From positions 855,594-919,593 of the forward strand of contig CBDANB010000007.1 of the NCBI GenBank assembly GCA_965197395.1: 64,000 nt of DNA, written 5' to 3'. A program made the translations under genes and the position numbers. Below are positions 4,884 through 17,622 of this stretch, piece after piece. Positions within the stretch are counted from its first letter, which is position 1; each line of letters starts with the position of its first letter. The notes beneath the pieces are model-generated. The model was not told where the DNA came from. It worked only from the letters and a program-made list of their open reading frames with translations, and ran no database searches. This DNA is from Vicinamibacterales bacterium (GTDB taxonomy: Bacteria > Acidobacteriota > Vicinamibacteria > Vicinamibacterales > UBA8438).

Positions 4884-4990
4884 ATGCCAGTTTCAGTAGG
4901 CGCCACCCTTGGCCCGTACGCCGTCACCGCCCAGACGGCCAAGGCGGCATGGCCGAGGTGTACCGCGCCCGTGACACGAGCTCGACCGGG
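4884..4990 (+). pseudogene. Ser/Thr kinase N-terminal remnant
   Basis: MPVSVGATLGPYAVTAQ, then (shifted) GGMAEVYRARDT; truncated thereafter. Confidence 0.75.
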
Positions 4991-13046: not shown

Positions 13047-13060
13047 CGGGCCGTACGCTA

Positions 13061-14246
13061 GTGTCCTGTAACAGAAATAAGTAAACGGTTTATGGTGCCT
13101 CGACGTATTCCTCGCAGGAGGTGCACGTGAGAGGTCCTGCCCCGGTGACAGTGACCGTCAGTGACGACGAACGGCAACGGCTCGACTCGTGGGCCCACCG
13201 GTCGCGCAGTGCCCCGCAGGTGGCGCGGCGCGCCCGCATCATTCTGGCGTGTGCCGCCGGCCGCTCGACGACGAGCATCGCCAAACGGTTCCACGTCTCG
13301 CGGACCACGGTGTGCAAGTGGCGCACACGCTTCGTGCGCGATCGCCTGGAGGGACTGATCGACGAACCGCGTCCGGGCACGCCTCGGCGGATTACCGATG
13401 CGCAGGTGGAGCAGGTGGTGATTGCAACCCTGGAAACCACGCCTCGCGGGGCGACGCAGTGGAGCACGCGCGATATGGCGAAGGCGACGGGCCTGAGTCA
13501 CATGACCATCCAGCGCATTTGGCAGGCGTTTGGATTGCAGCCGCATCGCAGCGAGACCTTCAAGCTGTCGCCAGACCCGCAGCTGGTCGAGAAGGTGCGC
13601 GATATCGTCGGGCTGTACGTGAATCCGCCGGACCATGCCCTTGTGCTCTGCGTGGACGAGAAATCGCAGATTCAGGCGTTGGATCGGACGGCCCCCCTGC
13701 TGCCGATGCAACCCGGGCAGGCCGAGCGGCGCACGCATGATTATCGGCGGCACGGAACGACCTCGCTGTTTGCGGCCCTCGACGTCAAGACGGGCGAGGT
13801 GCTCGCCGAAATGCACCAGCGGCATCGCTCGATCGAGTTCCGCAGGTTCCTCGATGCGATCGACGCGCACGTCCCCGCCGACCTGGACGTGCACCTGATC
13901 GTCGACAACTACGGGACGCACAAAACCGCGATCATTCAGCGCTGGTTGGCCAAGCGCCCGCGGGTCCACCTGCACTTCACACCGACCTATGGGTCCTGGA
14001 TGAACCTGGTCGAACGTTGGTTCGCGGCGCTGACGACGAAGCAGCTTCGCCGCGGCGCCCACCGGAGCGTCGCGGCCCTCAAACGCGCGATCCAAGAGTT
14101 CATCGAGGTGACCAATGAGCAACCGACGCCGTTCGTCTGGACCAAGAGTGCCGACGACATCCTCGCGAGCATCGCCCGGTTTGCTCGGCGAACGCTGGCT
14201 GCACACCCAGCATGACAACTGTTCGCGAACCACTGTTACGGGACAC
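13061..14246 (+). mobile_element. IS630-family element, copy 2 (diverged from copy 1)
   Basis: GTGTCCTGTAACAG / CTGTTACGGGACAC ends; TA duplicated at 13059-60 and 14247-48 in CTAG. Confidence 0.92.
13127..14215 (+). CDS. IS630 transposase
   Basis: [30 protein letters not shown]; AGGAGG RBS before GTG13127. Confidence 0.95.
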
Positions 14247-14573
14247 TAGATGTTGGGGGCGCCTGAGTCAAGTAAATAGCTAACTCGAGGATTACGTGGA
14301 GGTCATCAGGGCCATCGGCGCGCAGCACTTCCTGGTTTCATCAGACCTGGGCCAGTACTTGAACCCGCTGCAAACTGACGGCCTGAAGGCGTTCATCACC
14401 GCGTTGCGCGAGCAAGGAATCAACGAAGGCGACATCGACATGATGGCGCGGCGAAACCCAGCGCACCTTCTCGGGCTCGATCCTTAATGCCTCTCCAGCC
14501 CGGCACCACCCTCGGCCCGTACGAGATCCAAACCCCGCTTGGCGCGGGCGGTATGGACATCTGAGTTGTTCAG

Positions 14574-15824
14574 TCAAGCAAAATCTTTGACGAGCGCGGA
14601 CCCACGTCGGCGTAATGCGTCGAGGTAGATCGCTTCGTCGTACGGCCGACGGTCCTGCCAGCACCGGAAGAGAATCCGCATCCACTTGAAGGCGAGCGAT
14701 CGCAGGGCGGCGTGGTGCGAGTTGCCGCGGCCGCGCTGCTGGTCGTAGTACCGACGGGCCCAGGTCGAGAAGCGAATCGATTGGTCCGCATACTCGTGAA
14801 ACGTCTGCTTGAGGAATTTCGGGCACGCCAGGCGGTGATGCACCCAGCAGCTCTTTCCGCTGCGCTCGGTGACGGGGGCGATGCCGGCGTGGGTCTGCAG
14901 CTCGGTCGCGGCGGCCCAGCGGGTGCGGTCGGTGCCGAAGGCCGCCGTGAGGCGCGGGGCGCAGACCGGCCCGGCGCCGGGGAAACTCGCAAAGAGCGCC
15001 TGGTCCGGGTGCGTGGCGAAGACCGCGGCGATCTGCGTATCGAAGGCGTCAATGGCCTCGAGGAGGGGGCGGAGTTGGGCGGCGTAGCTCTGGACCGCGA
15101 GCGCGAGGGTGTCGACGATCGCCGGGTCGGTGGTCAGTGGCCGGGCGGTGGCGACCTGCTCAAGCCGACGGGCGATCACCGCGGCCTGGCGACAGTTGTG
15201 CTGCTGATAGAACCGGCGCAGGGTGGCGGGGCGCGCCCGTTGGACGGCGGCGAGCGTCGGCCACTTCTGGAGAAAGTCGCAGCCTTGCCGCGAGTCGAGC
15301 GCGCCGACCCAGTCAAGCGCCTGGGGGAAGTACTGCTTGAGCAGGCTGGTAAGCCGGTTGGTCAGGGCGACCCGGTGATTGACGAGCTTCCGGCGGTGTT
15401 CGCAGAGCAGTTGCAACCGGCGGGCCTCCACGGTGTCGGGCATCCACGCGCGGAGCTGGGCGCGATGGGAGCGCAGCAGATCCAACAGGAGCGCGGCGTC
15501 GGTCGGATCGTCTTTGGCCCCGCTGGGGTGGAGGGCCTCCCGGTAGCGCGCTAACGCCTTGGGGTTGATCGGATAGAGGACCACGAACTCATACTGCAGC
15601 AGGGCGTGCACGACCGCGCCCTTGCGTTGTTCGATGGCAATCCCGACCGGGCGGCCCCCGAACCGCCGCCGCAGCTGCGCCACCCAGGCGTGCAGCGTGT
15701 CGGGCCGCTGTTCGAGCTCAATGTGTTCCAGCCGGCCGCCGGCGGCCGGCTGGATCGCGATCGCGTGCCGCTGATCGCCCCAGTCCAATCCGATGTAGGC
15801 CACCACGTCGTCGTCAGTCCGCAT
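14574..15824 (-). CDS. IS110 DEDD recombinase/transposase
   Basis: YIGLDWG (D), IAIE (E), AKDDPTDA (DD), VTERSGKS catalytic-Ser wedge; GGGAGG RBS before ATG15824. Confidence 0.95.
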   Translation of the reverse strand: MRTDDDVVAYIGLDWGDQRHAIAIQPAAGGRLEHIELEQRPDTLHAWVAQLRRRFGGRPVGIAIEQRKGAVVHALLQYEFVVLYPINPKALARYREALHPSGAKDDPTDAALLLDLLRSHRAQLRAWMPDTVEARRLQLLCEHRRKLVNHRVALTNRLTSLLKQYFPQALDWVGALDSRQGCDFLQKWPTLAAVQRARPATLRRFYQQHNCRQAAVIARRLEQVATARPLTTDPAIVDTLALAVQSYAAQLRPLLEAIDAFDTQIAAVFATHPDQALFASFPGAGPVCAPRLTAAFGTDRTRWAAATELQTHAGIAPVTERSGKSCWVHHRLACPKFLKQTFHEYADQSIRFSTWARRYYDQQRGRGNSHHAALRSLAFKWMRILFRCWQDRRPYDEAIYLDALRRRGSALVKDFA

Positions 15825-15859
15825 GCGCCTCCCTTCGGGGAACACGCACGTGGCCTTGG

Positions 15860-16050
15860 TCCTGCGCAAGCCCTATAGTAGAGTCCTGAGTGGTCACACT
15901 CGGACGACATCTGAGTATGCGATGTCGGACCAAAGCGCCGTCTCCGCTCGAACGTCCATGCCAAACCGTTGCTGCGGTGGGCGAGGTTGATTCGTAGCGG
16001 AGGCGGTGCGCGTTTCCTTTCCGTGTTCATCCAGCCCAGTTAACGTACGC
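15860..16050 (-). ncRNA. Predicted IS110 bridge RNA (target-binding loop about 16000-15944, donor-binding loop about 15921-15865); ends approximate
   Basis: Guides TGGGCGAGGT (15978-87) and CCATGCC (15956-62) match the target halves. GACATCTGAGT (15906-16) and CCTATAGTAG (15872-81) match the donor halves. Each pair is separated by an internal hairpin. Confidence 0.8.
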
Positions 16051-16554
16051 GCGCCGCTATGGAACCTGCCGCACCTGTGGAAATCCGCCAAGAGCGCGGA
16101 TTCCCACAAGGTGCTTGGAACGCTTCGCGTCCCACAGGTCCCACAGCGTTCATCATCATCCTCTCTCGTATCCGGTGAGTTCCAGATTCCAAGACAGCGG
16201 CCCTACTATAGGGCGAGGTCTACACGAGAAAGAACTGAGACGAACGGCATGACTGACCCAAAAGTCCTAAGGTTCCTCACACAAATGTGTGCACGATTCA
16301 GCCCCCAGCAGGTCAGCCACGCCGTGGAAAGAGGCTGCGGATGTGTTCGTGCCCGCGAATCAGCGGTGAAGTCGTCTATCGCTCAGTCGACGGCCGCCTG
16401 CGCGGGCCCCGCTTTTGGTGGGGGGCCTGCTCGACGGCAGCCGGTCCCACCTCAAGGTGCTGAGGCGCTGGCATTTACAGGGCGACGAACCATGAACACT
16501 CGTGGAACGCGGCCTGGACTTTCGCCGACGCGCGAACGAGCGGACCCCGGCACC

Positions 16555-17210
16555 AAGAGTAAGTATCCCCCGGCAAAGCCGGGGGCTTTAGTTGTGAGCC
16601 GCTCAAAGCGGCTGACGTGACCGCTGCGCGGTCACTTGAGCCACCTGACGGTGGCGGCTCTAGTCCAACGGCAACTGATCCAGCCGCCGATCCTCTCGCT
16701 CCTGCTGCTGGATATAGTCCCGGATGATCCGTTCATCACGGCCCACCGTCGAGACAAAATACCCGCGCGCCCAGAAGTGCTGCCCCACGAAGTTCCGGGA
16801 CCGCCCCGCAAACTCCCGAGCGATGTGGATCGCGCTCTTCCCCTTGAGATACCCGATCACCTGCGCCACCGAGTACTTCGGGGGGATCGACACCAACATG
16901 TGGACGTGGTCGGGCAGCAGATGCCCCTCCTCCACCTGGCTCTCGCGGTGCCGCGCCAGCTGCCGCAGCACCTCGCCCAGCTGCTGCCGGACGCCTCCAT
17001 ACATCGCTTTCTTCCGGTACTTCGGAATGAACACTACGTGATACTGGCAGTGCCATTTCGTATGATTGAGACTTCGGTACGTCGTCATGAGGACTCCTTC
17101 TCGTGATGCTTGTGCGGCTCACGGGAAGGAGTTTCCTCACGCGACTCCCGGATACGTCAAACGCTGCTGGCCGCCCCGGCAAAGCCGGGGGGTCTCCCAC
17201 GGCAACTAGG
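16555..17210 (-). mobile_element. IS200-type element (tnpA only); boundaries approximate
   Basis: Subterminal hairpins CCCCCGGCAAAGCCGGGGG (16567-85) and CCCCGGCAAAGCCGGGG (17174-90) flank tnpA. Confidence 0.85.
16660..17088 (-). CDS. tnpA: IS200/IS605 Y1 HUH transposase
   Basis: YHVVFIPKYRKK, DHVHML (HUH), FWARGYFVSTVG, IRDYIQQQ. Confidence 0.95.
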   Translation of the reverse strand: MTTYRSLNHTKWHCQYHVVFIPKYRKKAMYGGVRQQLGEVLRQLARHRESQVEEGHLLPDHVHMLVSIPPKYSVAQVIGYLKGKSAIHIAREFAGRSRNFVGQHFWARGYFVSTVGRDERIIRDYIQQQEREDRRLDQLPLD

Positions 17211-17622
17211 GACGCGCGCGGAACCGGGACTCGACGCAACTACTGACGTCGATCAGGTCCCGGGTCTTCTCCAGCAGGACGAGAAAATCCTCATCGGCCT
17301 GGAGCACATCGGTGAAAGCGTCCCGTGTCTCGAGATCGAGGTGCTGTTCCGAAAAGCGGATCTGGTTGACGGGATCCGAGACGTTCTGAAACCCGGTCAT
17401 CCACCGACCGATCGTCACCGACATCTCGGCGGCGGGGTATTTCTTGCTGGCGACGTCGACCATGGCGTTGGCCAGGGCCGCGGCGGCATCGTCCTGGCCC
17501 GGCTCGATATTGCAGACGCGGTAGAAAACGAAGGGGCGTTCGACTTGCACGCTGACTTCCGCAACAGGGATCGATGCCCCGGCGAGGCTGATCCACGCGA
17601 CCACGGCGACGAGGGGCTTCAT
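17206..17622 (-). CDS. Hypothetical secreted protein
   Basis: Hydrophobic N-terminal signal, plausible composition; no family recognised. Confidence 0.55.
   Translation of the reverse strand: MKPLVAVVAWISLAGASIPVAEVSVQVERPFVFYRVCNIEPGQDDAAAALANAMVDVASKKYPAAEMSVTIGRWMTGFQNVSDPVNQIRFSEQHLDLETRDAFTDVLQADEDFLVLLEKTRDLIDVSSCVESRFRARP

Follow-up and report, generated by a model that had tools for sequence, protein, structure and literature searches.

How does an insertion sequence (IS) come to lie precisely within the codons of a protein kinase's catalytic loop, and is the site chosen or fortuitous? The question is raised by a stretch of 64,000 nucleotides (nt), here called the window, from the genome of a Vicinamibacterales bacterium (Acidobacteriota; GenBank assembly GCA_965197395.1, contig CBDANB010000007.1, positions 855,594 to 919,593 of the forward strand), in which an element of the IS110 group splits the 5′ end of a serine/threonine kinase gene. 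An initial annotation, made from the letters of the window alone, had proposed a bridge recombinase whose RNA guides are programmed against the Gly-Met-Gly-Glu-Val (G-M-G-E-V) codons of the kinase motif, using the kinase family as a landing pad. On the follow-up analysis reported here, it is highly probable that this is an IS110-group bridge element programmed against those codons, that the programming is a specialisation of its whole clade, and that its persisting copies are enriched in kinase 5′ stubs. Positions below are those of the window.

The element and its insertion site

Rechecking the junctions and guides confirmed the initial coordinates exactly to the base (Table 1). Both junctions carry the same 2-nt core, CC on the element strand, and their inspection revealed no further target duplication. 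Deleting 14557-16212, that is, the element and one core (1656 bp), gives ...GGCGCGGGCGGTATGG/GCGAGGTCTAC, where the slash marks the junction here and throughout. The rejoined empty site is ...GGC GGT ATG G/GC GAG GTC TAC, and translation from the ATG at 14487 yields MPLQPGTTLGPYEIQTPLGAGGM/GEVY; excision does restore a kinase P-loop, as originally claimed.

The product of the recombinase gene matches Pfam families PF01548 (5e-28, 98 bits) and PF02371 (1e-13, 52 bits), in both cases above the cut-offs. A search of the PDB with the single recombinase sequence found no match, and a profile built from ten family members matches the recombinases of IS621 (8wt6) and ISCro4 (9t56) with an E-value of ∼2e-13. 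The conserved residues D14, E65, D106, D109 and S322 align with the catalytic residues D11, E60, D102, D105 and S241 of IS621. The Pfam and profile matches identify the protein as an IS110 bridge recombinase, the class to which it had first been assigned. As far as sequence can tell, the element is an intact, RNA-guided mobile element of the IS110/IS621 type, and every feature of the IS110 group that can be examined in this way is present.

Table 1. Positions of the element, its guides, the interrupted kinase gene and neighbouring features within the window.
Feature	Position	Strand	Remarks
IS110-group insertion sequence	14557..16210	-	1654 bp between the two cores
Recombinase coding sequence, 416 amino acids (aa), intact; DEDD RuvC-like domain and Tnp domain	14574..15824	-	PF01548, PF02371
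Core dinucleotide GG (CC on element strand), right-end junction	14555..14556	.	same core in all relatives
Core dinucleotide GG (CC), left-end junction	16211..16212	.
Kinase 5′ stub, first part: ATG and 23 codons (MPLQPGTTLGPYEIQTPLGAGGM) plus first base of next Gly codon	14487..14556	+	right target (RT) side; RT = ATACC on element strand
Kinase stub, second part: (G)GC GAG GTC TAC, then ACG AGA AAG AAC TGA	16213..16238	+	left target (LT) arm GCGAGGT
Right end	14557..14573	-	final 7 nt CAGATGT = left donor arm (LD); conserved in all relatives
Left-end terminus TATAGT	16205..16210	-	right donor arm and candidate -10 hexamer of circle-junction promoter
Candidate -35 hexamer TTGACT	14572..14577	-	overlaps recombinase stop codon (TGA inside); promoter part only after circularisation
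Bridge RNA core	15856..16009	-	target-binding loop module 16009-15935; donor-binding loop module 15933-15856
Left target guide (LTG) ACCTCGCCCA (ACCTCGC-CC-A)	15978..15987	-	identical to left flank, core and first base of right target
Right target guide (RTG) GGCATGG (GGCAUGG)	15956..15962	-	complementary to CC-ATGCC
RTG with handshake dinucleotide AC	15954..15962	-	AC pairs with donor positions 6-7 (GT)
Left donor guide (LDG) ACTCAGATGTC, i.e. ACUCAGAUGU-C	15906..15916	-	identical to right-end terminus and first core base
Right donor guide (RDG) CTACTATAGG	15872..15881	-	complementary to core and left-end terminus
RDG with handshake, CUACUAUAGG	15870..15881	-	complements CC-TATAGTAG of left end; then GC, pairing with target 6-7 (GC)
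Accessory branched RNA/DNA module, TGTGGGA repeats and 15-bp hairpin	16055..16148	-	between left-end terminus and bridge RNA
IS630-family element (DDE_3)	13058..14249	+	∼17 copies
260-bp miniature repeat	16271..16530	.	∼100 genome copies, most 100% identical
IS200-like element (Y1 transposase)	16558..17209	-	∼50 copies

The bridge RNA

The non-coding left end, which is 386 nt long and lies upstream of the recombinase gene, contains two modules of stem, internal loop and hairpin, in each of which a pair of guides encloses the hairpin and the stem closes it. The four guides lie where they had initially been placed and spell the target ACCTCGC-CC-ATGCC and the donor CAGATGT-CC-TATAG (7+2+5), the 14-nt format being that described for IS622. 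At this copy the guide matches amount to 9/9 for LTG, 6/7 for RTG, 11/11 for LDG and 10/10 for RDG, and the right end matches LDG ACTCAGATGT-C across 10+1 nt. The occupied site, ACCTCGC-CC-ATACC, differs from the programmed target by a single mismatch at the Gly wobble position (GGT). This is the geometry recognised earlier as that of the IS621 bridge RNA, whose left guide repeats the top-strand sequence up to and including the core and whose right guide complements the sequence that runs outward from the core (PMC11208160). Both handshake dinucleotides fit as well: under the rule that dinucleotides 3′ of the right guides pair with the non-cognate DNA at its positions 6-7 (PMC11208158), AC of the target loop pairs with donor GT, and GC of the donor loop with target GC. 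The second handshake position shows no covariation in relatives that differ at target position 6.

The minimum-free-energy fold contains all of the hairpins and closing stems named in the initial annotation (z = -2.96; whole left end, z = -8.95), with one correction: the 3′ arm of the donor-loop hairpin is CACTCAGGAC, with one bulged A, and not CACTCGGAC. Comparison with homologues, which had been suggested as a check on the fold, bears it out. When 22 distinct homologue sequences were aligned, 98% of 900 cells were paired across 41 pairs in five helices, against only 31-39% in slid-alignment controls; all five helices show compensatory changes, and six pairs show double changes. A permissive search of 14400-17400 against Rfam 15 returned chance-level matches only and no bridge-RNA family.

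The accessory module beyond the bridge RNA (∼95 nt, very stable) is missing from relatives with short left ends. Separately, 92 nt of it recur at 96% identity at C5:442810-442901, at the end of an unrelated repeat.

Homologous copies and guide variation

Relatives were sought by a protein-based genome scan, by BLAST of 401 genomes of the order (nine positive), by scanning metagenomes for an 18-mer taken from a stem that contains no guide, and through the contigs of two multi-copy proteins. This collected 47 loci bearing a bridge RNA, ∼39 of them non-redundant, mostly from Vicinamibacterales genomes and metagenome contigs; the source organisms, where named, are Vicinamibacterales metagenome-assembled genomes. 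Some 30 of the ∼39 loci sit in the kinase site GGCATGG/GCGAGGT, exactly where further insertions had been anticipated, with flanks reading GxGGM/GEVY(R/K/Q)A. Joining the flanks with one CC core yields a sequence that aligns with uninterrupted kinase genes from one side of the junction to the other. Where the loop is unchanged, copies occupy this same kinase site rather than unrelated targets, and the matches between donor guides and element ends are conserved among the relatives. More distant relatives of ∼50% identity (e.g. L007) share the RNA layout and, as judged by eye, have non-kinase flanks, which makes the kinase habit seem a trait of this clade alone. We read the clade, whose recombinases are at least ∼70% identical, as apparently specialised on a motif that protein function holds constant across dozens of paralogues per genome.

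If the guides select the site, they should vary together with it, and guide and flank do covary. LTG matches its own left flank at 207/231 positions compared with 187 after shuffling (0/20,000 shuffles reach 207), and RTG its own right flank at 135/140 compared with 129.9 (5/20,000 shuffles reach 135), although these shuffle counts ignore relatedness among the copies and hence are not true probabilities. Target arms are perfect in 17/33 relatives on the left and 24/28 on the right. The variable guide positions are LT3 (the Glu wobble, GAG/GAA), LT6 (the Gly wobble, GGC/GGT/GGG), LT5 (the first base distinguishing Glu from Gln) and RT3 (the first Gly wobble). For example, L049 carries the guide ACCTGGC in a kinase of GQV type; in the P0007 genome the guide is ACCTCCC and six flanks likewise read ACCTCCC; L021 and L061 combine RTG GGGATGG with the flank ATCCC; and L071 has ACCTCAC in guide and flank alike. 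In L027, three LTG bases differ (guide ACCCCAC-TC), and a non-kinase flank matches all of them exactly. In L072 and L077 only the right half matches, and they resemble the 'half-match' off-target insertions reported for IS621 in a 2026 preprint. Our reading of these variants is that the guides appear to drift along the synonymous and paralogue-specific positions of the kinase motif. The RNA architecture, the guide-flank and guide-end matches, the way in which these covary among homologues and the repeated use of the kinase site can all be read directly from the aligned loci.

One locus, L019 (G096:C2:31647-31814), comes from a genome of a different family of the order: 168 nt of its left end, including the bridge RNA, are 100% identical to the element described here and lie in a kinase stub. 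It diverges before the recombinase gene, and is either a truncated copy from a recent horizontal transfer or a binning artefact.

Circle junction and proposed mechanism

By analogy with its homologue IS621, the element would leave the chromosome as a circle. A simple scan for sigma70-like sites found none inside the integrated element, and the joined ends give TTGACT, 17 nt, TATAGT. Circularisation could in this way bring together the TTGACT of the right end and the TATAGT of the left end as a sigma70 promoter with a 17-nt spacer, from which the left end with a bridge RNA of ∼155 nt, and then the recombinase gene, would be transcribed. Within that RNA the donor loop would hold the circle junction CAGATGT-CC-TATAG, and the target loop ACCTCGC-CC-ATGCC, the antisense of GGC ATG GGC GAG GT. 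The codons thus targeted would be those for G-M-G-E-V in the glycine-rich loop of Hanks-type Ser/Thr kinases, the guide-matched kinase target for recombinase and bridge RNA being GGCATGGGCGAGGT. The DEDD/Ser recombinase would then exchange strands at the CC core, with the handshake dinucleotides complementary to positions 6-7 of the opposite partner, and insertion would always be antisense to the kinase, splitting it after codon 23. For transcription, circle formation and catalysis we infer this course from homology with IS621. The initial annotation had described the kinase family as a 'renewable' landing pad, against which bears the argument of a 2026 preprint that IS621 excision is mostly single-stranded copy-out.

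Kinase genes, stubs and alternative explanations

The host genome offers many potential sites. It has 68 open reading frames with GxGxxGxV...AxK, 65 of them of GGMG type, and the programmed 14-mer occurs five times, four of these in kinase P-loops, where ∼0.16 occurrences would be expected on a base-composition estimate for 6 Mb at 66.6% GC. Host kinases match the 14-mer exactly in four cases, within one mismatch in 18 and within two in 41. There are ∼54 kinase-domain matches of at least 150 aa and, by our own count, ∼85 kinase-like P-loop 5′ ends, and the genome contains numerous unoccupied stubs, meaning kinase 5′ ends with no kinase domain after them.

At the locus itself, the frame beyond GEVY reads TRKN and stops at 16236-38, and kinase-like DNA extends only over 16213-16223, 11 nt beyond the core. 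The VAIK lysine, HRD and DFG that follow the glycine-rich loop in Hanks-type kinases are absent from the locus, with intact paralogues that carry all of them elsewhere in the genome. In a same-genus genome, the 70-nt kinase flank (14487..14556) matches the 5′ ends of ∼30 or more kinases, the best at 91%, and when an orthologue or empty site for this copy was sought in relatives with that flank, only paralogues were recovered.

Several observations weigh against a guide-directed specialisation on kinase genes, in addition to the relatedness of the copies noted above. The occupied site leaves a C·A mismatch with RTG, and the interrupted gene is a stub of 31 codons, of which 23 + 4 are kinase-like. 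Mapping all genomic copies, as had been suggested, turned up one only: a genome-wide search found the element to be single-copy in its own 6.07-Mb genome, and none of the matching host kinase sites is occupied. At the LTG core positions, about one third of the clade's natural guides read CA (L036, L038, L042, L051, L060, L061, L069, L070 and L072-L086) while their sites are CC, and IS621 disfavours core mismatches (PMC11208160). The source genomes of the relatives are mostly metagenome-assembled. Finally, among the 22 copies with enough flank, nine lie in kinases that continue for 100-300 aa (relatives in long kinases include L001, L003, L038 and L042) and 13 in 5′ stubs that end 11-120 nt from the element, so that the use of working kinases is demonstrated for only about nine copies.

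One rival reading, to which we give a chance only a little short of even, is that the element is aimed at the P-loop and effectively lives in dead kinase 5′ fragments, insertions into working kinases being transient and purged. The landing pad would then be pseudogene debris, still recognisable through its recent descent from conserved genes. The location of this copy and of 13 of the 22 evaluable relatives in stubs speaks for it, as do the excess of P-loop 5′ ends over kinase domains, many of those ends being unoccupied, and the emptiness of all 18 intact kinase sites within one mismatch (the four exact and 14 one-mismatch sites found by the scan for unoccupied 14-mers that had been proposed at the outset). 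Against it, at least nine relatives are found in kinases continuing for 100-300 aa, and stubs could equally form by decay after insertion, in a sample made up of intact-ended elements only. Persisting copies are probably enriched in dead 5′ fragments through a selection filter, whereby insertions into working kinases are lost and insertions into debris are kept. Of the landing pad first proposed, the programming of the target loop for the G-M-G-E-V codons stands, with ∼30 copies there, but the pad on which copies persist consists largely of dead kinase fragments.

The origin of the stubs is a separate matter. Their formation by the element's own recombination was considered and rejected, as the breakpoints lie 11-120 nt from the core. 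Several stubs end at DRDV/ or VA/, which hints at a clustering of stub ends at the targets of other IS110 elements, but in the host's own genome the ends are spread over kinase positions ∼40-58. The left flanks of L005 and L019 each contain a second kinase 5′ fragment ∼0.9-1.0 kb past the stub that bears the element, so stubs can occur in series. The window also holds a degenerate, unoccupied kinase P-loop fragment (GGMAEVYRARDT/SSTG) at about 4943-4960 (C8:860536).

The copy in the window could also be an inactive relic, left behind without a usable promoter in a rearranged stretch crowded with insertion sequences; we consider this unlikely, though far from negligible. The genome is very rich in insertion sequences. 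Past the kinase-like DNA come 46 unique nt, the 260-bp miniature repeat and the IS200-like element, with the IS630 element on the opposite side. The miniature repeat, which has no match in Rfam, could be a non-autonomous element mobilised in trans. The region to the right of the IS200-like element is syntenic in a same-genus genome, but no kinase is present there. These surroundings favour a relic, as do the single copy and the lack of a sigma70-like promoter in the integrated state. Conversely, the reading frame is unbroken and encodes every catalytic residue, the bridge RNA is intact, as are both ends, and the 100% identity of L019 over 168 nt in a different family suggests recent movement.

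Far less probable is that the mobile unit consists of stub, IS and stub together, spread by another route, with the kinase site no target at all. Many copies do have unrelated genes on either side, the kinase-like DNA next to the left end amounting to only 11-120 nt, and several share identical 30-nt right flanks. However, stub lengths vary from copy to copy, upstream of LGPY the N-terminal flanks are not alike, nine copies occupy long kinase reading frames, the joined flanks are colinear with intact kinases, and the guides match exactly the bases abutting the core and covary with them. Site choice by protein or DNA structure, with incidental RNA-flank matches, is scarcely credible: a 2026 preprint describes an extra structural layer of target recognition in ISPpu10, but covariation here extends to four positions on both arms, L027 is retargeted at three bases, and the architecture matches IS621, in which the site is set by the RNA.

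Other IS110 elements at kinase genes

The element is not alone in adjoining kinase sequences in this genome. Five host kinase 5′ ends stop at ...LKIL and continue into a common foreign sequence, a second element (el2) of 1.52 kb. It encodes an unrelated IS110-family recombinase of 346 aa, and its non-coding region on the 3′ side is long, as in IS1111-like elements. Full copies at C8:574774-576295, C1:1175052-1176573 and C6:172042-173563 are near-identical and occupy different kinases at the site AAGATC-CT-CCCCGAC. The el2 insertions fall at the kinase codons LKIL/PD in at least four kinases, and the kinases resume beyond the C8, C1 and C6 copies. A truncated copy (C7:129100-130329) and a partial, diverged one (C5:21017) have the same LKIL end, and another full copy (C5:363459-364986) lies at a look-alike site in a non-kinase gene. 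The 3′ non-coding region of el2 contains a 10-nt (AGGATCTTCA) and a 9-nt (CCCCGACGC) match to the kinase target, ∼95 nt apart.

A third IS110-family gene, single-copy and encoding 426 aa with PF01548 and PF02371 (C5:392131 onward; region C5:392071-394730), directly adjoins a kinase stub ending ...KLDRDV/, and these DRDV codons are also where several stubs beside relatives of the main element break off.

It is tempting to suppose, though we consider the idea rather doubtful, that the first ∼150 nt of the Vicinamibacterales Ser/Thr kinase family form a shared landing zone for several independent lineages of RNA-guided IS110-family elements, used by the element described here at GGM/GEV, by el2 at LKIL/PD and by the third gene at DRDV/, with guides drifting along synonymous and paralogue-specific codons, and that such insertions, with follow-on deletions, are a main cause of the many kinase stubs. 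If this were true, these elements would drive birth-and-death turnover in this signalling gene family.

Comparison with known systems

The element shares much with IS621 of E. coli, IS622 and ISCro4 (Durrant 2024, PMC11208160; Hiraizumi 2024, PMC11208158; structures PDB 8wt6 and 9t56). Like them it combines a recombinase with DEDD RuvC-like and Tnp (Ser) domains and a bridge RNA that lies upstream of the gene, within the left end. IS621 likewise has two internal loops, 7+2+5 recognition, a 2-nt core, handshake dinucleotides and a promoter split across the circle junction (here a potential read from sequence). Unlike those of the IS621 group, the recombinase is distant, found by family profile only, and has 416 aa as opposed to 326-341 aa. 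The core is CC and not the CT of IS621, RTG is natively 7 nt long, the RNA is preceded by an extra structured module of ∼95 nt on its 5′ side, and the natural target is a protein-coding motif, not repetitive extragenic palindromic (REP) elements. The range of bridge recombinases open to testing gains from it a distant orthologue of 416 aa, with a CC core and a right guide that is natively 7 nt long, and ∼20 natural guide variants.

In the literature searched, no account of IS110 elements that target kinase genes came to light, and in this respect the element provides a natural, well-replicated case of a bridge RNA that would have evolved to read a protein-coding motif. The apparent tracking by its guides of codon wobble and of the Glu/Gln difference between paralogues offers a view of how guides evolve in the wild. 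It also points to a cost of large paralogous families, in that a single 14-nt guide can address dozens of genes, and insertions of this kind may be responsible for some of the kinase pseudogenes that these soil bacteria carry.

Other members of the IS110 family are also selective. The mycobacterial elements of the IS900/IS901/IS902/IS1110 type prefer a site that separates the ribosome-binding site from the start codon, and they enter it in one orientation; theirs is a translation signal upstream of genes, whereas here the site comprises codons for a catalytic motif that is conserved within a single family of paralogues. The IS1111 group, together with ISPpu9 and ISPpu10, is RNA-guided and uses multi-copy conserved targets (attC sites, inverted repeats of Tn21 type and REPs). 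Elements of that group (IS1111, IS4321/IS5075) reportedly have a 3′ seekRNA, as Siddiquee is said to have described in 2024. Their guide RNA and that of ISPpu9 and ISPpu10 follows the gene, and they insert into non-coding repeats or other mobile elements, unlike the element in the window, while el2 resembles the IS1111 group yet lands in kinase codons.

More broadly, R2 in ribosomal DNA, Tn7 at glmS and homing introns exploit selection-conserved sequence as a dependable landing site. Those systems occupy single or tandem loci, which they recognise by way of proteins or introns; in the present case an RNA guide would address ∼20-40 dispersed paralogous sites per genome and destroy the gene that is entered. 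The mechanism is the known bridge-RNA mechanism, and what the element of the kinase P-loop brings to it is a new class of target and guides that track its codon variants.

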